Source: Fimbriimonadales bacterium (GTDB lineage: Bacteria > Armatimonadota > Fimbriimonadia > Fimbriimonadales > ATM1). From it: DNA of 64,000 nt. Position 1 is the stretch's first letter; each line of letters begins with the position of its first letter. Below, piece after piece: positions 1 to 24,508 of the stretch. The stretch spans positions 96,001-160,000 of the forward strand of contig JBGTLG010000016.1 in assembly GCA_041744215.1 (NCBI GenBank). The letters are read 5' to 3'. A model generated the notes under the pieces. That model ran no database searches and was not told the DNA's origin. It saw only the letters and a program-made list of their open reading frames with translations. Both the position numbers and the translations under genes were made by a program.

Positions 1-126
1 GAAGATGACGTTTTTCGGCCGGGCGGTTTTCCGTGAGATCGCTCTTAGCGGTGAAGAGAGGCCCAATGTCAGGCCTGCCGCGGCGAGTCCTCCAGCTCCG
101 ATGATCTCTCTACGGGTGAGCTTCAT
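1..126 (-). CDS. 5' part of a Tat-exported alkaline phosphatase/sulfatase-superfamily protein (runs off window)
   Basis: Manual translation from ATG at 126: MKLTRREIIGAGGLAAAGLTLGLSSPLRAISRKTARPKNVIF; twin-arginine signal followed by the PKNVIF start of an AlkP-type core. Confidence 0.55.
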   Translation of the reverse strand, partial: MKLTRREIIGAGGLAAAGLTLGLSSPLRAISRKTARPKNVIF

Positions 127-161
127 GTTTCGAGGCTACCCTGACTAACATTATGGGATGA

Positions 162-332
162 TTAATCGGCCGGTTCCTCTTTCGCGTCCTTTTTGCGGCG
201 CCTCCGCACTGCTTCGCGGAGGAGGTACTCGAGCTGTCCGTTGACGCTCCGGAATTCCTCCTCCGCCATTCTTCGGATCTCTTCATAGAGCTCCGGAGAC
301 AGCCTTAGGAGCACCGGTTTCTTTTCGGGCAT
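162..332 (-). CDS. Arc-family ribbon-helix-helix DNA-binding protein (56 aa; below ORF-track cutoff)
   Basis: Manual translation [48 protein letters not shown]; Arc-like LRL...RSVN pattern; ATG immediately follows the SPFH stop. Confidence 0.85.
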
Positions 333-1211
333 TTAGCCGTAGAGTGTCCCTGTGTTTAGAACGGGTTGAGCTGCGTGTTCACTGCAAAGCACAACCATCA
401 GATTCGAGACCATCGCGGCCTTGCGTTCTTCGTCGAGTTTGATCACGCCTTCTTTCTCCATTCTTTCGAGAGCCATCTCGACCATTCCGACTGCGCCATC
501 CACAATTCTGGTTCTCGCAGATATCACGGCGGCTGCCTGCTGTCTTCGAAGCATCACGCTGGCGATTTCCGGTGCGTAGGCAAGGTGCGACAATCGAGCC
601 TCTATGATTCGGACACCCGCGAGTTTCAGTCTCTCTTGCAACTCCGTTTGCAAGTGCTCGCTGACCTCTTCGGTGTTGCGTCGCAAGCTGAGTGAATCAT
701 CTTCGGCATCGTATGGGTATGAGCCAGCCGAGTGTCGGACTGCCGACTCACTTTGCATCGCGACGTAGTCTTCGTAGTTGTCGACTTCGAATGACGCGTC
801 ATAGGTGTCAACGACTTGCCAGACAATGATCGCAGCGATCTCAATGGGATTCCCGACGAGGTCATTCACCTTCAGCTGTTCGCCATTTAGGCTTCGCGCC
901 CTGAGTGAAACGCCTCGCTTCGTCATGAACGGGTTAGTGAAGTGCCAACCCGATTTCTTGACCGTGCCTTTGTAGTTTCCAAACAGGAGCAACACCTTGC
1001 TGCCATTCGGTTCCACGATGAAGTACCCGCCGAACATGATGGAAGCGACTAGGAGGACGATCATCGACCAGGTCATCTTCCACCCATCGATTGAGTCTTC
1101 CCCGCCCCGGACCGCTTCCCAAAACAGCCAGCCGCAAAGCACCCAGAGACCGCAATGGGCCAAGAACATGAGCAGTCCCGGGGCCACCCGGATCGTTTTT
1201 TCGTGTTTCAT
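333..1211 (-). CDS. SPFH/band 7 domain membrane protein
   Basis: Two N-terminal TM helices; LKVND..GNPIEIAA, LSHLAYAPEIASVMLRRQQA, GAVGMVEMAL; SD AGGAG upstream. Confidence 0.9.
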   Translation of the reverse strand: MKHEKTIRVAPGLLMFLAHCGLWVLCGWLFWEAVRGGEDSIDGWKMTWSMIVLLVASIMFGGYFIVEPNGSKVLLLFGNYKGTVKKSGWHFTNPFMTKRGVSLRARSLNGEQLKVNDLVGNPIEIAAIIVWQVVDTYDASFEVDNYEDYVAMQSESAVRHSAGSYPYDAEDDSLSLRRNTEEVSEHLQTELQERLKLAGVRIIEARLSHLAYAPEIASVMLRRQQAAAVISARTRIVDGAVGMVEMALERMEKEGVIKLDEERKAAMVSNLMVVLCSEHAAQPVLNTGTLYG

Positions 1212-17859: not shown

Positions 17860-18389
17860 GTCGATTCCTTCTGAATGCGCGCGAGAATGCGCTCAAGATA
17901 CACGACCTGTTTGCTCAGCGGGACTTTCGAAAAGGGCGGTACGTGTACGAACCCTGACCGCACATCAGGCCATCTCGTCGCAACCCGAAAGTAAAGGTAG
18001 TTGCACAAGAAGCCGCCCGCGTTTCGAGAAGGTTTCCACGACTGTGTCGCATGGTTCCACCCTTCGAAGAGCAATCCAGCAACAGCGTCGGGCGCATCGG
18101 GGTCAATCATATCTGGGCCGTAAGCGACGCCCTCGACGTCGGGTTTGGAGCTGATAACGTTGCGCGCGATCCTTTCAACTCGAAGTTTGTTAGAACGCCC
18201 CGCGACGCCGAGCATCAGCACCCGATCAACGCCCGCGCGAGGCCGCGATGCGAACTTATCTGCTGCCGCGAACGATACTGGCAGGACGACCACGCCATTC
18301 CCGAGGACCTCGCGAGCAAGGACTTGGCTGGGGTTCTCTTTGAATCTGCCGAATGGCCCGAATGCCGTGACAAGCAGTCGGCCCATCAC
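17856..18389 (-). CDS. pcp: Pyroglutamyl-peptidase I
   Basis: LVTAFGPF..NPS, catalytic E (RVER), C (AGGFLCN), H (FVHVP). Confidence 0.85.
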   Translation of the reverse strand: MMGRLLVTAFGPFGRFKENPSQVLAREVLGNGVVVLPVSFAAADKFASRPRAGVDRVLMLGVAGRSNKLRVERIARNVISSKPDVEGVAYGPDMIDPDAPDAVAGLLFEGWNHATQSWKPSRNAGGFLCNYLYFRVATRWPDVRSGFVHVPPFSKVPLSKQVVYLERILARIQKEST

Positions 18390-19942
18390 CCTACTTGATC
18401 GCCTCGCTCACCGGGCGCAACGCCGACCGGCTGTTTAACTTTGATCGTGACCTTTCCGGTTACGGGCCGGTTGTCATCATCGAAAACCGTCAGCGTGAAC
18501 GTGACTGTTTGTCGGGGGAAGATTGTTGCAGTTCCTTTCTGAATGTCGAAGTCGTTGACGGACGGCTCAATCTGAGCACGCGCGACGTTGGAGATAGACC
18601 ATTCGAGGGTAACTGGCGTGTCCGGTTCAATCTCACGATCGCCGAGTGGTTCGCCAAGGATCGTTGCCCGGAACATCGAAATCTGAGCTTTGCTGATTGC
18701 TTCTACGGTAAGTGGAGCAGATCTTTGCGCCGCTTGACCAGACTTGTTGAACACCATCAGGGTGACGTCGAACCTCCCCTCATTCGGCGCGGTGAACTTG
18801 AACGTGTCGATGTTCAGCGGAAGCGTAAAATTGAACGGCTGCAAAATGATGCGATCTGCGTGCTGCACTTTGTAAGTGACGGTGACGGTGGCCCCAGGGA
18901 CTACTTTGGCGGGCGATACGCTCAGCGCGTCGATGACTGGCAACGGCTCTTGTTCTGGAATGCGCGCAATCACTTCAAGCGGTTTGTATTGTGCGCTCCT
19001 CCGGTTGTCATCATTGTAAGCGGTGATGCTAAATGAAATTGTCGCATCTACAGGAACTTCGATTTCTCCAGTTGGCGGCGCAGAAAACGTTCTCCCATCG
19101 CTAGCTTCGATTTCGACCCGCGTCGCATGTTCCGTTTCCCACGCGAGTTTGACCGACTCTCCCGACAGGAGTTCGTATTTGTGCGCATGGAACGACTTGA
19201 TGTATGGATCTTGTGGGCGATTCAGATACCAGATTGTGCCGAGCATTATGAGAATAAGAAAGATCGCGAGAAAGCCTGGCGATACAGTTGCTTTTCTATC
19301 AATCTGGGCTTGCGCGTTGCTGGAGACATGTGGATTGTCGACTCCTCTCGCAGATACTGTGAAGCCGAACAGTCGAGGCGTTCCGATGAGAGGAAAGTGA
19401 GAAGGCTGTACCGCAAGGCGAACTTGCTTTTGTTGTCCTGGCGCGAGTGCTACGCGCTCTTGGGCGAACTGATACGTGCAGCCGTCTTCTGGATCGTCGG
19501 CGAAGAGCTGGAGATTAAGTTCTTCGTTGCCGAGATTGATTGCTGTTACGGTGTAAGGGGCTTGCTTTGAGAAAGCGCTTGCGCTCTCCCGACGCGGCTC
19601 GACTTCGATGCTTACCAAACTGAAAGGCTCAATCTCCAGGACGCCTTGCGCCTCTTCGGCTTGACCAGTTTCAAGAGAACGTACCTTGATTAGGAAAGGG
19701 TAACTCCCCGCCTTGCTTTCCGCAGACCTCGGGGGTTTGATCAGCGCCTTCTGCTGCTTTTCCTCCCCAGGCCCCAGCGTGAACGAAGCGACGGGTATAG
19801 CGACCCACTCCGCATCGAGACCTTCAATCTCGATCTCGTATCGATCGGCGGCCTCGCCGGTGTTAGTGATCGACACGACCAGCGTAGCGGCATTGCCGGG
19901 CTCAACGTGCAGGACATCCTTGGACAGGCTAACCTCGAACAT
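18386..19942 (-). CDS. Membrane-anchored multi-Ig-domain protein (COG1470-like N-terminus)
   Basis: Two N-terminal beta-sandwich repeats (ITNTG..DRY; INLGN), central TM helix, three C-terminal Ig-like repeats (LxW...FTLT). Confidence 0.75.
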   Translation of the reverse strand: MFEVSLSKDVLHVEPGNAATLVVSITNTGEAADRYEIEIEGLDAEWVAIPVASFTLGPGEEKQQKALIKPPRSAESKAGSYPFLIKVRSLETGQAEEAQGVLEIEPFSLVSIEVEPRRESASAFSKQAPYTVTAINLGNEELNLQLFADDPEDGCTYQFAQERVALAPGQQKQVRLAVQPSHFPLIGTPRLFGFTVSARGVDNPHVSSNAQAQIDRKATVSPGFLAIFLILIMLGTIWYLNRPQDPYIKSFHAHKYELLSGESVKLAWETEHATRVEIEASDGRTFSAPPTGEIEVPVDATISFSITAYNDDNRRSAQYKPLEVIARIPEQEPLPVIDALSVSPAKVVPGATVTVTYKVQHADRIILQPFNFTLPLNIDTFKFTAPNEGRFDVTLMVFNKSGQAAQRSAPLTVEAISKAQISMFRATILGEPLGDREIEPDTPVTLEWSISNVARAQIEPSVNDFDIQKGTATIFPRQTVTFTLTVFDDDNRPVTGKVTIKVKQPVGVAPGERGDQVG

Positions 19943-20037: not shown

Positions 20038-20613
20038 TCAGATGGCGCACCCAAGCTCAACAATTTTGGGCGCACCAGCGAAATCGACCTTTGGGGGATC
20101 GACCTTGAGGTAGGAGGAGATCACGCCTACTGATTCTCGCAGGAATCCCTCAGAGTAGCCCGTCCAGGCTTTCGACACTTTGCCATCTGGAGCGATCAGG
20201 ACGGCAGACGGCGAGTTGGTGATCTTGTAGGCATCAATGACTTCGTAATCTGGATCGCAAACTATAGGAAATGCCAGTTTGTGCGCCTTGTTCCACTCGA
20301 GGAACCCTCTTTTGTCGTCGCTAACGATTCCTACCACCGTCACAGCTCCCGGCTTGAAGGCCTTGCTGATCCGGTCGTAATACTTGGTTGCTTCGTTGGC
20401 GACAGGACAGGTGGTGCTAATGAAGTAGAGATACACAGGCCCCTTTTTGAGCGCTTCGTTGAGTTCAAATCGGGTTAGGTCAACTGCTGGCGCGTTAACA
20501 GCCGGAGCGGCTCTCCCAACAAGACTGTTCTGCCCGAGTGCGGCAAGCGCGGCGACGGTCATCGATGCACCAAGGAGAAGGAGCGCGGCGAGGGTAGCGA
20601 GTTTGGTTGGCAT
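20038..20613 (-). CDS. Exported peroxiredoxin-like/AhpC-TSA thioredoxin-fold protein
   Basis: Signal peptide, GRAAP, KGPVYLYF..TCPV, FPIVCD, C-terminal GCAI. Confidence 0.8.
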   Translation of the reverse strand: MPTKLATLAALLLLGASMTVAALAALGQNSLVGRAAPAVNAPAVDLTRFELNEALKKGPVYLYFISTTCPVANEATKYYDRISKAFKPGAVTVVGIVSDDKRGFLEWNKAHKLAFPIVCDPDYEVIDAYKITNSPSAVLIAPDGKVSKAWTGYSEGFLRESVGVISSYLKVDPPKVDFAGAPKIVELGCAI

Positions 20614-20672: not shown

Positions 20673-21662
20673 ATGCGAATCGGCATCATCGGCGCGGGCA
20701 TTTCTGGTTTGGCTGCGGCTCAGAGACTGAAGCCCGCAGGTCACGAGCCCGTCGTCTTCGAGGCTGCGGCCACAGTCGGTGGTCGCGCTGCAACAGAAGA
20801 AGTAGCTGGCTGCATCGTTGACACCGGACTCCAGGCATACACGCCCAGAGGGATGTCGATCGAGCAGGCGATTCTCCATGACTTCCCTTCGCCTGACCTG
20901 ACGCGGATTGAGAAGCCGATTTACATCTTATCGCACGGTAGGCCAGGACCGGGCGCGCCTGAGAAGGTCGCGGTCCCTCGGTTCACTTACCGGACAGGGG
21001 CGAGAACTTTCCCTGCGCTCCTATCGGACGGGGTAGAGGTTCGCCTCAACTCGCCTGTGGAGGGCCTCACAAAAGAAGGCGGACTGTACCAGGTGGATGG
21101 GGAGTCGTTTGACGGGCTTATTCTCACACCGCCGCTTGGAGAGGTAGGCAGACTCCTGGGAACCTTGGGGAAATCGCGAAACACGGGGAACGCCAGTTAC
21201 CGACCGTGCTTGTCAGTGGTGCTGGTTTACGAGGAGGAGCTTCCTCCCGTGCCTTACTCTGCATTGCTCTCTGACGATCGGATGTCTCCTGTGCTGTGGT
21301 TGGGTTTGGAAACGGAGAAAAGCACTGGTCGCGCCCCGGTTGGATGGACGGTGCTCGTAGCGCAGTTGGGGCCGTTGTATAGCAGACAGCATCTGGAGAG
21401 TAGCGAGCAGTCGATCGTTCCCGTCGCGACGAGCCTCGCCGCCCGACTCTTTGGGCCCAGGTTCGCGGCTCCTGCGGCTACTTACGTTCGCCGTTGGGTC
21501 GAATCACAGCCTGAGCGCGTTGCGCTATTCGGCAGCGTAAACCCAGGCAAAGAATTGGTAGTGGTTGCTGGGGATGGAACCCTGGCCGGCCGCGCTGAGA
21601 GCGCATACGAGTCTGGCATGATGGCTGCGGACAGGTTGATCGAAGCCGCAAACCCCGTGTGA
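20673..21662 (+). CDS. Renalase-family NAD/FAD-dependent oxidoreductase
   Basis: IIGAGISGL, GGRAAT, DTGLQAYT, RRW..SQP, AGD...ESAYESG. Confidence 0.85.
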   Translation: MRIGIIGAGISGLAAAQRLKPAGHEPVVFEAAATVGGRAATEEVAGCIVDTGLQAYTPRGMSIEQAILHDFPSPDLTRIEKPIYILSHGRPGPGAPEKVAVPRFTYRTGARTFPALLSDGVEVRLNSPVEGLTKEGGLYQVDGESFDGLILTPPLGEVGRLLGTLGKSRNTGNASYRPCLSVVLVYEEELPPVPYSALLSDDRMSPVLWLGLETEKSTGRAPVGWTVLVAQLGPLYSRQHLESSEQSIVPVATSLAARLFGPRFAAPAATYVRRWVESQPERVALFGSVNPGKELVVVAGDGTLAGRAESAYESGMMAADRLIEAANPV

Positions 21663-21692: not shown

Positions 21693-23276
21693 ATGATTGA
21701 CGTGCTTCTCCTCACCCTAACACTTGCGGTCCAACAGGCCGTGGGCCCACATCTGCCTGCTCGAACTGAACCTCAGATTCACGCCCTCAACGCGGAGATT
21801 CAGAGCCAACTCGCCTCCGGACAGTTTACGGAGGCGCGAGAAGTAATGGCGCGATGGCCCGGAGCGACCTTCACGTATGAGGTTGCCTATGAGCGCGGAG
21901 GAGAGCTGCCACCTAGCGCCCAGGGCGCAGGGGAAGAAGCGGCATCCGTCTGGTCGGAGGCAACAAACGGTCGGGTAAAGATCACAGAAGGATCGAAGGC
22001 GGCAGTCCGCATCGAGTTCATTGACCGCGCTCTTCCGGGAGACCCGCCTCCTGGCTGGAACGAGTCTCAAGTTGTCGCGAGAGTGCCGCTCTCGTTCGGC
22101 GAGCCTCCGCGGCCGATGCCGAGACGCTCCGTCGTTGTGGCGGTCGCTAAAGCCTTTGGCGTCGCAATGGGCCACGCGCCCTTGTCGCGGCACGGCTGGC
22201 TGATGGGAATTGATGATCGTATAGACATGGTCGCGCCGATTGGGCCAACTCCCACTGAGTTGGCGACGATCGGGAGGCTGCTTGACGTGCGTGATGAACT
22301 TGAGAAGGCCGTTGACGGGCGAATTCGGCTCACGCCAGGCATGCCAAAGCTTGTGATTGAGCCGTCAGACGTCAATCTGGGAATCGTTGACGAGGGAGCG
22401 AAACCGCGGGCCACGATCGTTCTCCGGAACGACGGCAACGCACCGATTGAGTTTGCCGTTGACGCCTCATGCAGGTGCCTGTTCCTGCAGTCGATTGCAC
22501 CCTTAGGACCGGGAGAGGTCCGTGTGATTGAGCCCGGCGCGGACACGAGCGGCTTTATGGGGAAGCACGCAAAAGAATTCCTCATTCACTCGAGCGACCC
22601 GGCTAAGCCGACTCAGTCGATTGTTTTGCGTTTCGAATCGGTGCCTGAGTACCGGGTGGTTCCCGATGCGCTTCAGCGCATCCACCTGCCTGACGACGGA
22701 CCTGGCGCGTTCGAAATCATTGTCTACTCGTTCCCGGGCAAGCCACTCAATGTGATTTCGGCGACTGCTAACCTGCCAGCGGTCACGACGCAGGTCACTC
22801 CTTTCACTGGCGAGGTCGTTGACCCTGCATTCTCGAAGGAACCAGAGCGGCGTACTGGCTACAAGGTTCGCATTGCGTTCGATCCATCGTTCCCAAGCGG
22901 GACTGCGTTTGTGAACCTGACGATCACTACAGACAGCCATCGGCGTCCCAGTCACTCGATTGTCCTGCAAACTCACAAAGGAATCGCGGCGGCACCGTCG
23001 AGCGTGTACTTTGGCGGAATCGCAGGTGACGAGAAGACCCAACGATCCATACGGATCTCTCACCCTACAGCGCGATTCAAAATCCTGGAGGCGACAACTG
23101 AAGGCGGCCCGTTCTCCATTTCTACACAGGCTGACGACTCTGACGGATTCGGGTACCGAGTCACGGTCACCTACAATGGAGGCGCGAAGGGACCGCTAGT
23201 CGGGCGAGTCATTCTGCGCACCGACCATCCGAAGTATCCGGAGATTGCTGTGCCTATCGCGGGACACACGAGATGA
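21693..23276 (+). CDS. Exported DUF1573-domain protein with degenerate matrixin-like N-terminal domain
   Basis: LRNDGNAPI..ASCRCL DUF1573 pattern and further Ig-like repeats; start may be GTG 21702. Confidence 0.7.
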   Translation: MIDVLLLTLTLAVQQAVGPHLPARTEPQIHALNAEIQSQLASGQFTEAREVMARWPGATFTYEVAYERGGELPPSAQGAGEEAASVWSEATNGRVKITEGSKAAVRIEFIDRALPGDPPPGWNESQVVARVPLSFGEPPRPMPRRSVVVAVAKAFGVAMGHAPLSRHGWLMGIDDRIDMVAPIGPTPTELATIGRLLDVRDELEKAVDGRIRLTPGMPKLVIEPSDVNLGIVDEGAKPRATIVLRNDGNAPIEFAVDASCRCLFLQSIAPLGPGEVRVIEPGADTSGFMGKHAKEFLIHSSDPAKPTQSIVLRFESVPEYRVVPDALQRIHLPDDGPGAFEIIVYSFPGKPLNVISATANLPAVTTQVTPFTGEVVDPAFSKEPERRTGYKVRIAFDPSFPSGTAFVNLTITTDSHRRPSHSIVLQTHKGIAAAPSSVYFGGIAGDEKTQRSIRISHPTARFKILEATTEGGPFSISTQADDSDGFGYRVTVTYNGGAKGPLVGRVILRTDHPKYPEIAVPIAGHTR

Positions 23277-24508
23277 GGTTTGTTTTCCCGGGTGCGTGTG
23301 CTTCGATCGCGCTCCTTGGGTTTGCAGCACAACCGCCAGAAGAACCTGAGCTTCGACTGATTTTCACTGGCGATATCCGTGGTTATCTCTCTCCTTGCGG
23401 CTGCGCCAAGCCACAGATCGGAGGAGTCCTCCGCTTGGCAGGTGTGGTTCGTGCGTTGCAAAAGCAGCCAAACGCTCACTACGTTGATTTAGGAAACTGG
23501 ACGGAGTCGCGCGGACGGCAGGACGAACTCAAAGCAGACTCGCTTGCTGAGGTGTTTGCTTCGTTACGACCTGCCGTCCTCAATGTAGGACCTCTGGATG
23601 TGATTCGAGGAAGAGACGCGTTGCGCGTGCACCGAGAAGCGACTGAGCATCGGCTGAGCTCTGCGAACTTCGTGTTTCTTGATGAGCCTAATGAGCAAGA
23701 TGCCTTTGGCCAGAGGGGGCTAACAACCCTGGGGCTGATGCCTGACGCAGACGCTCTGCGGATGGGTGGTCTGCGTGCACCCGCAAGGGAAGTACTCGAC
23801 CGACACCGATCGAACCGCTCGGCAGTCGCTCTGTTCGCAGGTCCGCTGGATGAGGCGCGTTCGCTCGTAGAGCAGACCGACTTCAGCGGGTTGGTTGTCT
23901 TTTCTCAGAAGGGCGACCCAATCCGGGAGCCTGTGGAAGCCGGAAGGGCGACGCTTGTCACGGTTGGGGACAAGGGGCGCTTCGTGGGCTATATCGAGTT
24001 CAAACGGGGCGAGTGGCACAACTTCCGGCTGATCTCGTTGGGCCCGGAACACTCTGACGATGCAGCAGCTCACCGTGCATACCATGCCTATCTCCAGCGT
24101 GTTACGGCAGAGCGGCTGATCGACACGCTACCCAGGTCTGAGGGTGGCGATTTTGTTGGGTCGGCGAGCTGCGCCCCATGCCATACGCGCGAGTATGAGC
24201 TTTGGCGAGAGACCACCCATGCCTCGGCACTCAAAACACTGGAGGACACCGGAAACGATCGAGACCCCGAATGCGTTGGGTGCCATGTCGTTGGCCTCGC
24301 CTTCACCAGCGGATTTCGGGATCGGTTTTCAACGCCGGGATTAGCCGATGTCGGCTGTGAGAGCTGCCATGGCGCAGGCGGAGACCACGTCACGCGACCC
24401 TACGAGCTTTACGGGAAAGCTGGGGAGGCGTCTTGTCTGCCCTGCCACAACTCGGATCATTCGCCCGAATTTGAGTTCAAGTCCTATTGGGAGCGGATCA
24501 AGCACTAA
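23273..24508 (+). CDS. UshA-like (5'-nucleotidase fold) / tetraheme cytochrome c fusion
   Basis: IFTGDIRGYLSPCGC..GG; four CxxCH motifs: CAPCH, CVGCH, CESCH, CLPCH; ATGA overlap with upstream gene. Confidence 0.85.
   Translation: MRFVFPGACASIALLGFAAQPPEEPELRLIFTGDIRGYLSPCGCAKPQIGGVLRLAGVVRALQKQPNAHYVDLGNWTESRGRQDELKADSLAEVFASLRPAVLNVGPLDVIRGRDALRVHREATEHRLSSANFVFLDEPNEQDAFGQRGLTTLGLMPDADALRMGGLRAPAREVLDRHRSNRSAVALFAGPLDEARSLVEQTDFSGLVVFSQKGDPIREPVEAGRATLVTVGDKGRFVGYIEFKRGEWHNFRLISLGPEHSDDAAAHRAYHAYLQRVTAERLIDTLPRSEGGDFVGSASCAPCHTREYELWRETTHASALKTLEDTGNDRDPECVGCHVVGLAFTSGFRDRFSTPGLADVGCESCHGAGGDHVTRPYELYGKAGEASCLPCHNSDHSPEFEFKSYWERIKH

Follow-up and report, generated by a model that had tools for sequence, protein, structure and literature searches.

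Pairing of a two-cysteine immunoglobulin-type protein with a UshA-like tetraheme cytochrome, and a possible dithiol relay in the bacterial envelope

Described relatives of the gene pair

Our subject is a pair of overlapping genes, here called ORF1 and ORF2 (for open reading frame, ORF), in a stretch of 64,000 nucleotides from a Fimbriimonadales bacterium of the phylum Armatimonadota (contig JBGTLG010000016.1, positions 96,001 to 160,000 of the forward strand); this whole stretch is what we call the window, and positions are counted from its first letter. ORF1 encodes a DUF1573-type protein with immunoglobulin (Ig)-like domains and a single CxC pair, and ORF2 a UshA-like cytochrome with a PCGC motif and four heme-binding CxxCH sites. 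The nearest described family of ORF2 is NF041198, "UshA-like (seleno)protein", the group of COG0737 UshA-like CxU selenoproteins described by Zhang and Gladyshev (2008). Like ORF2, its members join a UshA-like N-terminal domain with PCG-C/U, where U is selenocysteine (Sec), to a C-terminal c554-like tetraheme module; unlike them, ORF2 is short (411 residues against a model of 519 positions) and retains fewer metal motifs than the Sec forms do. For ORF1 the corresponding family is OS_HP2 (NF041425), at whose UxC/UGC position the CxC of ORF1 sits, while ORF1 adds to the DUF1573/OS_HP2 plan a pseudo-metzincin domain and two more Ig domains. Tables in three papers (PMC2398784, PMC9312934, PMC13188914) list UshA-like CxU and OS_HP2/DUF1573 UxC or UGC proteins as selenoproteins; in these tables the two families occupy separate rows, or appear as a gene name in an expression table, and no function is given there.

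The family models allow us to quantify these likenesses. NF041198 is the best NCBIfam match of ORF2 (157.3 bits, E = 5e-46), below the family cut-off of 275, and P41-C44 of ORF2 is the PCG-C/U motif of its UshA-like N-domain. This cut-off is passed by a DUF1573-paired homolog from Scalindua (L029, 283.1 bits) and by a Sec form (L071, 292.6 bits). NF041425 gives ORF1 only 21 bits against a cut-off of 100, although the CxC motif itself is present, and the best partner protein tested, that of L029, reaches 91.2 bits. The link to UshA-like selenoproteins drawn in the original prediction, which was made from the letters of the window alone, thus holds at the level of family models.

Other systems resemble parts of the pair. 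The Sox system likewise brings together an Ig-like carrier with a reactive cysteine, a 5'-nucleotidase-fold protein and c-type hemes; here, however, there is no dimanganese site and no GGCGG arm, and the hemes are fused to the nucleotidase-fold chain. UshA and CD73 share with ORF2 the N-terminal fold and the order of motifs, but ORF2 has substitutions at six of the seven metal ligands, and hemes stand where those enzymes have a nucleotide-binding C-terminal domain. In the c554/OcwA/MccA group of cytochromes the scaffold is similar, the four CxxCH sites of ORF2 aligning with those of c554, whereas in ORF2 this module is fused to a dead phosphoesterase and has neither a hydroxylamine oxidoreductase partner nor a three-helix bundle. 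Finally, the mitochondrial Mia40 (CPC)-Erv1-cytochrome c relay regenerates a CxC-type oxidant and delivers electrons to a c-type heme. Its resemblance to our pair is one of possible working and not of homology, since neither ORF1 nor ORF2 has a Pfam or NCBIfam match to Mia40, Erv, DsbA or DsbB; moreover the setting differs, with no flavin, a bacterial periplasm, and hemes held covalently in the subunit that would do the re-oxidising.

The component families are thus already catalogued. What appears to be new is their coupling, the predicted docking at a dead active-site crater, the series of CxC, CC and CCCC motifs on the partners, and the existence of two paralogous modules; a literature search, with subscription journals outside its reach, found no paper describing the DUF1573-cytochrome pairing. 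The pairing of a two-cysteine Ig protein with a tetraheme cytochrome is real and lies far beyond chance. For its function we propose, from sequence and structure models, that ORF1 and ORF2 may form an extracytoplasmic dithiol relay wired to hemes, a proposal to which we give about even chances and in which we infer the redox activity of the cysteines, their proximity, and the flow of electrons to the hemes with its direction.

Conservation of the pairing and of the cysteine motifs

How widespread is the pair? A profile search over 1.84 billion cluster representatives gave 11372 matches at E ≤ 0.001, 6115 at E ≤ 1e-10 and 2842 at E ≤ 1e-30, the weaker ones including cytochromes that share only the heme module. 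Across the phylum, 52 of 121 sampled genomes gave a match at E ≤ 1e-20, about 25 of these matches being full length, and within the window's order each of the 10 other genomes sampled has one. ORFs called in 80 genome loci were compared with ORF1 and with a hidden Markov model of the DUF1573 domain; seven loci are cut by contig edges and two lack the N-terminal domain of the cytochrome, leaving 71 that can be evaluated. In 35 of these 71 the cytochrome gene is directly preceded by one for a DUF1573 protein (with a gene in between in one case); the remainder have a DUF4159 protein upstream (16), an ambiguous neighbour (1, L052) or other neighbours (19). In a second sample of 80 metagenome loci, which were ranked by likeness to Armatimonadota-type queries and are hence enriched for that subfamily, a DUF1573-type domain is found upstream in 44 of 55 evaluable loci, the other 25 being partial or at contig edges. 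Co-localization of the homologs, which the original prediction had expected, is therefore seen in Armatimonadota and Planctomycetota. Of relatives of ORF1 itself, phmmer on the fetched loci found 31 and a word-index search 3.

The flanks of the pair change with lineage: a release factor and an AAA gene in Armatimonadota, glycogen genes in Brocadiales, Wzy_C/TPR and GT4 genes in Pirellulales. This argues that the conserved unit is the DUF1573-cytochrome pair itself. In the window the two genes overlap as predicted, the junction reading gagATGAggt, which would allow translational coupling; an overlap of this NTGA type is found in 13 of 18 Armatimonadota pairs (14 with L021), and homology begins at that codon. 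A fusion of the two genes was also considered, on the strength of an 896-residue ORF in L016, and rejected; the N-terminal half of this ORF is an over-extended frame, and the real DUF1573 gene lies in another frame.

A quick IQ-TREE phylogeny of 73 proteins places these contexts in relation to each other; left out were the truncated L033, L041 and L051, the proteins of L056 and L061 that share the heme module only, and L060, L065 and L071, whose ORFs are cut at a TGA codon. All 16 genes with DUF4159 context fall inside one clade of 24 rows (Shimodaira-Hasegawa-like approximate likelihood ratio test 95). Genes with DUF1573 context make up 20 of 22 rows in an Armatimonadota clade that includes the window, 7 of 7 in Brocadiales, and further rows in Phycisphaerae and Pirellulales clades, so that the DUF1573-paired loci include the anammox lineage Brocadiales/Scalindua. 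The paralogous clade (Planctomycetota and Verrucomicrobiota; L045-L083, for instance L046:127-10724 and L074:237-7332) has a conserved gene row of its own: a VWA protein, a protein of about 940 residues without a Pfam match, DUF4159 and the cytochrome, followed in eight loci (seven with DUF4159 upstream, plus L054) by a thioredoxin-HEAT protein of about 1130 residues. For DUF4159 the literature search returned only the Pfam database paper.

The partners in both contexts share one property. Of the 44 metagenome partners, 30 have a CxC at the motif position, 13 a CC (SCCGV instead of SCGCT, for example) and one a CxxC, and a single CxC is present in 34 of the 35 DUF1573 cluster members from the genome loci. 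In the paralogous context a GCCCCG stands close to the C-terminus in 16 of 17 members of the DUF4159 cluster, and six of eight thioredoxin-HEAT proteins have a CxxC. The cytochrome, in other words, repeatedly adjoins proteins that display close thiol pairs. Two side observations concern the architecture of the cytochrome's relatives. Five Armatimonadota homologs of ORF2 (P0021, P0027, P0032, P0034, P0041) are 572 residues long with C-terminal HEAT repeats, which echo the separate thioredoxin-HEAT protein of the paralogous clade. The proteins at L056:4921-6933 and L061:4810-6999 (Myxococcota and deltaproteobacterial), which have only the c554-like module in common with ORF2, contain nine CxxCH sites and an N-terminal thioredoxin-like domain with CPHC.

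The motif on the cytochrome side is equally persistent. PCG followed by Cys or a stop codon is found in 69 of the 80 genome loci, and variants in six (PCEC, QCGC, SCGC, VCGC, and PCNC twice); of the other five, three are cut by contig ends and two (L056, L061) have the heme module only. A C-x-C/U is thus present in all 75 loci that hold the N-terminal region. As the original prediction had suggested for homologs, seven loci have an in-frame TGA at the second Cys of PCGC: L060, L065 and L071 among the genome loci, L145 and L157 in the metagenome sample, and L169 and L170 in genomes of the window's own phylum. We read this codon as Sec because of its position, the conserved coding on both sides of it, and the published family lists. 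GC-rich hairpins, candidates for a selenocysteine insertion sequence (SECIS), lie about 20 nucleotides after the TGA in L060, L065 and L071, but they fold no better than shuffled sequences (z from -0.01 to -1.38) and are given no weight here. SelA scores above its family cut-off in all four genomes tested, that of the window included, where selA (G000:C16:82537-83817, 471 bits) lies about 12 kb before the window start. The window organism can probably make selenoproteins, yet it has Cys in both motifs here. At the partner motif no TGA was found in any DUF1573-paired locus, neither among the 35 from genomes nor among the 44 from metagenomes. An exchange of Cys for Sec is typical of catalytic redox residues, and the Sec forms also keep more of the metal motifs than ORF2 does (DAGD, GEHD).

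Among the 150 best cluster representatives, 12 (P0182, P0184, P0190, P0197, P0207, P0211, P0218, P0220, P0229, P0239, P0249, P0261) start at a Met four residues after CGC (M-[STA]-G-G...). They resemble gene calls truncated by an in-frame stop further upstream, perhaps a Sec TGA, and so suggested Sec forms within the close Armatimonadota-type subfamily, a candidate that we set aside as unverified: a search found no matching DNA, and the nearest metagenome loci all have Cys. In Eisenbacteria we found a tandem (L071:3043-5641) of a Sec-form PCGU tetraheme protein followed by a PCGC paralog of 356 residues, which has only three cysteines and no heme sites.

The two proteins, their predicted complex and their surroundings

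The original prediction had described ORF2 as a dead phosphoesterase fold, on the basis of a by-eye alignment with 5'-nucleotidases, and our structural analysis agrees. The AlphaFold2 model of ORF2 (41-row alignment) has a mean predicted local distance difference test score (pLDDT) of 90.7 and a predicted template modelling score of 0.88. For its N-terminal 290 or so residues, Foldseek places 5'-nucleotidases and SoxB on top, with E values from 5e-15 to 1e-11 and template modelling scores of about 0.5 over the query (3ivd at 5e-15; SoxB 4uwq and 2wdc at about 1e-12), and the domain indeed has the N-terminal alpha/beta sandwich of 5'-nucleotidase and calcineurin-like metallophosphoesterases. 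Moreover, hhalign aligns ORF2 with a 5'-nucleotidase of its own genome (L002) at a probability of 93.9, setting IFTGDIRG on IHNNDVHA, VDLGN on LSGGD and NVGPLD on AVGNHE. What is missing is the dimetal site, of which one ligand in seven is kept. In the D-x-H motif D34 remains, itself not invariant across the family, and H is R36; GD is G74-N75 with D replaced by N75; GNHE is G106-P107-L108-D109 with P107 for N and L108 for H; the following H is G190, and GHxH reads Q..G. Hydrolysis is thus unlikely, though the fold is intact. At E ≤ 0.1 ORF2 has no Metallophos match in Pfam and no match to the SoxB model TIGR04486, so that the likeness to SoxB is one of fold only; there is likewise no Pfam match to the substrate-binding domain 5_nucleotid_C, residues 290-411 being the heme domain instead.

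The PCGC motif aligns, by hhalign, to the loop right after metal motif I, a long loop of lower pLDDT in the model. ORF2 has no cysteines other than C42 and C44, the C9 of its signal peptide and the eight that bind heme. All 41 of 41 homologs, at 34-63% identity, share G37, L39, P41, C42, G43, C44, P47, G50, G51 and R54, and in the linker R276, P287 and R288 are invariant or nearly so.

For ORF1 the AlphaFold2 model has a mean pLDDT of 92.1, and by sequence there is no match in the PDB. Its N-terminal domain superposes, by VIA-align, on metzincin proteases: snapalysin 4hx3 with Z 10.3 (root-mean-square deviation 3.1, 126 residues aligned), ADAM10 with Z 9.3 and MMP-9 with Z 9.2. Where metzincins have HExxHxxGxxH, however, ORF1 reads VAKAFGVAMGH and its relatives NE..Y..G..LGLA, which makes this a pseudo-protease domain. 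The Ig domain that follows matches, over residues 218-311, DUF1573 (PF07610) marginally, with 27.6 bits against a cut-off of 26.1, and the HYDIN/VesB Ig family with 31.9 against 25.5; relatives of ORF1 score 54-91 bits for DUF1573. It superposes on the PapD-like domain of HYDIN (2ys4) with Z 12.1, a root-mean-square deviation of 2.1 and 98 residues aligned. The cysteines C260 and C262 lie on a loop between two short strands of this domain and are invariant in 22 of 22 homologs at 20-60% identity. Besides ORF1, the genome encodes no other DUF1573 protein. The SCRC, PCGC and four CxxCH motifs named in the original prediction are thereby all located at residue level, and the conservation of both CxC pairs, which it had made a point of, is complete among these homologs. 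Of the signal peptides it had read on both proteins, that of ORF2, as read from the sequence, is typical (MR, a hydrophobic core, then FAA before the cleavage-site Q), in keeping with the export that covalent attachment of c-type hemes requires. That of ORF1 is only probable and could be an anchor, the N-terminus being short, hydrophobic and without positive charge, with a helix modelled at residues 3-11 at low pLDDT.

The heme domain of ORF2 is of the c554 type. Cytochrome_C554 (PF13435) matches residues 300-367 with 56.2 bits against a cut-off of 20.8, residues 290-403 correspond to positions 401-519 of NF041198, and phmmer finds the c554 chain 1bvb (E = 1.6e-10) and the nonaheme OcwA chain 6i5b (E = 5.8e-11). 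All four CxxCH sites are invariant in the 41 homologs, as are just three histidines outside the motifs (H316, H372, H411), for four hemes; in the c554 alignment H372 and H316 fall on the GDH and TAHA of c554. In c554 itself heme 2 is five-coordinate and the other hemes are bis-His. By analogy, heme 2 of ORF2 (C334xxC337H338) would lack a distal histidine.

An open heme of this kind would suit a reading in terms of metals. CxC and vicinal CC are classic soft-metal binders (the C-terminal CC of MerA, the CXC of CCS), and the sulfite reductase MccA has a Cu(I)-Cys2 site. One could suppose that CxC, CC, CCCC and PCG(C/U) chelate Cu(I), Hg(II), As(III) or species of Se or Te whose redox state the hemes would change, or, in a narrower version, that the cysteine pair holds a metal beside the open heme 2 as in MccA. 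The three spare histidines of ORF2, its weak sequence match to MccA (E = 0.012), the additional metal motifs of the Sec forms, and the several metal-handling Sec proteins listed in selenoprotein tables (PMC2398784, PMC9312934) are all consistent with this. But metal-resistance or transport genes do not recur in the neighbourhoods, the presence of a match in all sampled genomes of the order fits housekeeping better than a detoxification island, the thioredoxin CxxC of the paralogous context points to dithiol exchange, and the heme-less PCGC paralog of Eisenbacteria argues that the cysteine pair is independent of heme. We regard handling of soft metals or metalloids as unlikely, and return to the dithiol relay.

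Do the two proteins bind each other? We modelled residues 20-411 of ORF2 with four hemes together with residues 214-527 of ORF1, using the 41-row and a 22-row alignment, respectively. Over three runs the interaction prediction score from aligned errors (ipSAE) was 0.00, 0.66 and 0.69, a median of 0.66 against 0.01 for the best of three controls; in a calibration set without ligands and without custom alignments, 116 of 157 solved complexes and 2 of 215 mismatched pairs attained such a value. The pLDDT of the partner in the complex is at least 84. On ORF1 the predicted interface comes mostly from the two C-terminal Ig-like domains, including the invariant P435 and G441, and takes in residues 257-261, C260 among them. 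On ORF2 it consists of residues 79-82 (beside the invariant R82-Q83), 111, 191-193 and 212-222, together with R276, P287 and R288 of the linker. Proteins of the 5'-nucleotidase fold have a single crater, formed by the loops that follow the metal-motif strands, and according to hhalign the listed ORF2 residues correspond to these crater loops. From the model we infer a position of the C260 loop above the degenerate active-site crater, in which C42-C44 also lie. In its Cys forms the pair is operonic, and its products probably interact physically. One element of the original prediction did not survive: that the DUF1573 protein is a mere scaffold is unlikely, since its only two cysteines are invariant and residues 257-261 lie at the predicted interface. 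ORF1 looks like a redox partner or a substrate carrier.

An Ig-like partner whose cysteine loop is predicted on the crater, with c-type hemes on the same chain as the fold, naturally recalls SoxYZ, SoxB and SoxAX. The Ig partner might carry a sulfur or selenium adduct (a persulfide or thiosulfonate) and insert its loop into the crater for transfer or oxidation, with the hemes as electron sink, so that the pair would unite the three Sox roles. The presence of SoxB, and of the solved SoxB-SoxYZ complex 4uwq, among the best Foldseek matches points this way, as do weak matches of relatives to the SoxB model (73 bits for L071). A dimanganese site is essential for hydrolysis by SoxB, however, and ORF2 has neither this site nor a match to the SoxB model. 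Moreover ORF1, which ends ...PIAGHTR and has its cysteines at 260 and 262, has no GGCGG swinging arm at its C-terminus, the hosts are recorded as heterotrophic Armatimonadota and Planctomycetota rather than as sulfur oxidisers, and no other sox genes recur nearby. A Sox-like carrier thus seems to us quite improbable, and we keep to the relay.

The features of the locus are collected in Table 1. The G+C content is even across the region, and a scan for promoters and terminators gave counts not above those of shuffled sequences, with nothing between ORF1 and ORF2. The flavin amine-oxidase-like gene in front of ORF1 may be co-transcribed with it and lies outside the conserved module. Beyond it, on the opposite strand, are an exported AhpC/TSA-type redoxin with a signal peptide (20038-20613, two genes upstream of ORF1) and a protein of 518 residues with FixG_C/NPCBM-type Ig domains (18386-19942); together with the amine-oxidase gene they form a local cluster of redox and Ig-fold genes. 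We rejected a conserved role for the amine oxidase, the AhpC-type redoxin or the NlpC/P60 neighbour, none of which recurs in other loci, where the gene upstream of the pair is variously a release factor, a glycosyltransferase or something else. About 3.9 kb past the window end, the same genome encodes a stand-alone metallophosphoesterase of 238 residues (L003:1462-2178, minus strand, G000:C16), which keeps HTNDLHG, GD, GN.E and GGHSH and matches the middle of NF041198 at 59 bits.

Table 1. Features of the locus, in positions of the window
Feature	Position	Strand	Residues	Remark	Basis
Flavin amine-oxidase-like gene	20673..21662	+		31 nt upstream of ORF1	Pfam, ORF list
ORF1	21693..23276	+	527 aa	exported DUF1573-type partner protein	ORF list, Pfam, AlphaFold2 model
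Hydrophobic N-terminus of ORF1	21693..21758	+	1-22	probable signal peptide or anchor	read from sequence
Pseudo-metzincin domain of ORF1	21780..22304	+	~30-204	without HExxH zinc site	VIA-align
DUF1573/PapD-like (ASH, MSP) Ig domain of ORF1	22338..22646	+	216-318		Pfam, VIA-align
CRC motif of ORF1 (SCRC)	22470..22478	+	C260, C262	sole cysteines of ORF1	
Two further Ig-like beta-sandwich domains of ORF1	22647..23273	+	319-527		model, VIA-align (318-527 and 430-526)
ATGA overlap, ORF1 stop and ORF2 start	23273..23276	+		putative translational coupling	
ORF2	23273..24508	+	411 aa	UshA-like PCGC tetraheme cytochrome	ORF list, NCBIfam, AlphaFold2 model
Signal peptide of ORF2	23273..23329	+	1-19	MRFVFPGACASIALLGFAA, followed by QPP	read from sequence
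Degenerate metallophosphoesterase (5'-nucleotidase/SoxB-like) domain of ORF2	23345..24058	+	25-262		Foldseek, hhalign
PCGC motif of ORF2	23393..23404	+	P41-C44	long loop after first strand of fold	
Linker helix between ORF2 domains	24062..24127	+	264-285	helix 264-279 and 282-285 in model	
c554-type tetraheme domain of ORF2	24140..24505	+	290-411		Pfam PF13435, phmmer
CxxCH sites of ORF2	24170-24184, 24272-24286, 24356-24370, 24434-24448	+	300-304, 334-338, 362-366, 388-392		

A possible dithiol relay and its meaning

How could such a pair work? We propose that ORF2 re-uses the 5'-nucleotidase/SoxB fold, its dimetal site gone, as a docking platform whose loop after the first metal motif would now hold a reactive pair, PCGC (PCG-Sec in some relatives), and that a c554-type four-heme wire takes the place of the nucleotide-binding C-terminal domain of nucleotidases. 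The three Ig-like domains of ORF1 would dock on this platform and bring the C260-x-C262 surface loop over the degenerate crater, where two-electron thiol/disulfide (or selenosulfide) exchange between the partner pair and PCGC could be coupled to one-electron steps on the hemes. The pseudo-metzincin cleft and the PapD-like domain might, as a speculation, hold polypeptide substrates. Several lines of evidence lead us to the relay: the economy and invariance of the cysteines, the exchange of Cys and Sec, the destroyed dimetal site and the linkage of the genes, together with the recurrence of close thiols on the partners, a complex prediction that passes its controls, and the c554-like scaffold.

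In which direction would electrons flow? The disulfide of a CGC motif has a potential near -0.17 V, and the hemes of c554 range from about +0.05 to -0.28 V, which makes flow from thiols to hemes the easier direction. Within the relay we thus favour the oxidative sense, in which the natural path would lead from the partner's dithiol to PCGC, on to the hemes and then to a high-potential periplasmic acceptor. Its outcome would be a CxC or CC disulfide, strained and strongly oxidising, that is regenerated on the Ig protein with ORF2 as its re-oxidant. In the reverse sense, a low-potential donor would feed the hemes, then PCGC, then the partner, and ultimately an envelope peroxide, sulfoxide or disulfide. 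Reductases and peroxidases often have Sec at catalytic positions, and c554 has two low-potential hemes, both of which would suit reduction, as would the exported AhpC/TSA-type redoxin two genes upstream. But from ordinary periplasmic cytochromes c to a CxC disulfide electrons would have to run uphill, by the potentials just given, and the redoxin neighbour is not conserved in other loci; we consider the reductive direction rather improbable.

A number of points weigh against the relay as such. Hemes carry one electron at a time, while disulfides need two. The window organism's genome encodes two VKOR homologs, which are disulfide-forming proteins, so that a general Dsb-like role is not needed and the pair is not the cell's only disulfide-forming system; that it replaces the Dsb system, an idea raised by the failure to find DsbB in this genome (93% complete), we rejected for the same two homologs. 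Neither partner is present in 20 of the genome loci (the ambiguous L052 included), the Armatimonadota loci L006 and L018 have unrelated genes upstream, and a DUF1573 neighbour is found at none of the six evaluable loci with Sec forms, so that the partnership holds for Cys forms and, beyond these, at the level of families only. As to the complex, one run in three scored 0.00, and the contacts that agree between runs amount to at least 2%, which is low. The calibration set, as said, differs in make-up from our input, and likeness to the solved complex 4uwq could lend part of the pass, the identity to SoxB being about 14%. Taken together, the interface residues show no more conservation than the remainder of the proteins (Mann-Whitney p 0.76 and 0.98), and C42-C44 are absent from the listed partner contacts.

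The last of these points would fit a case with no relay at all, the cysteine pairs being structural or heme ligands and the Ig protein only anchoring or escorting the cytochrome, and PapD-like folds are indeed often chaperones or adaptors. However, a structural disulfide would not swap to Sec, nor among CxC, CC and CxxC, and both pairs lie on loops rather than in cores, each as the sole non-heme pair of its mature protein. An explanation without thiol exchange therefore strikes us as very improbable, and the dithiol relay is the reading that we retain.

More generally, and more tentatively than for the single pair, we suggest that the PCG(C/U) tetraheme cytochromes might be the hub of a widespread, unrecognised envelope system in Armatimonadota and in the Planctomycetes-Verrucomicrobia-Chlamydiae group, anammox bacteria included. 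This broader possibility, which we would call doubtful though worth stating, is that the nucleotidase-heme unit makes or discharges strained vicinal disulfides (CxC, CC, CCCC) on its partners, which would be DUF1573 Ig proteins in one clade, and DUF4159 and thioredoxin-HEAT proteins in the other.

UshA-like CxU and DUF1573/OS_HP2 UxC proteins have been listed as selenoproteins since 2008, with no function given in the tables cited above, and they can now be brought under one joint hypothesis. If the relay exists, it would represent a new design, in which c-type hemes are coupled to a Cys/Sec pair on a recycled phosphoesterase and thereby link thiols with the respiratory chain, and it would bear on oxidative protein folding, on envelope redox balance and on the use of selenium in poorly studied phyla. 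If, moreover, the cytochromes are such a hub, the system would be the bacterial counterpart, working without flavin or quinone, of the Mia40-Erv1-cytochrome c relay and would provide a first function for two orphan selenoprotein families.

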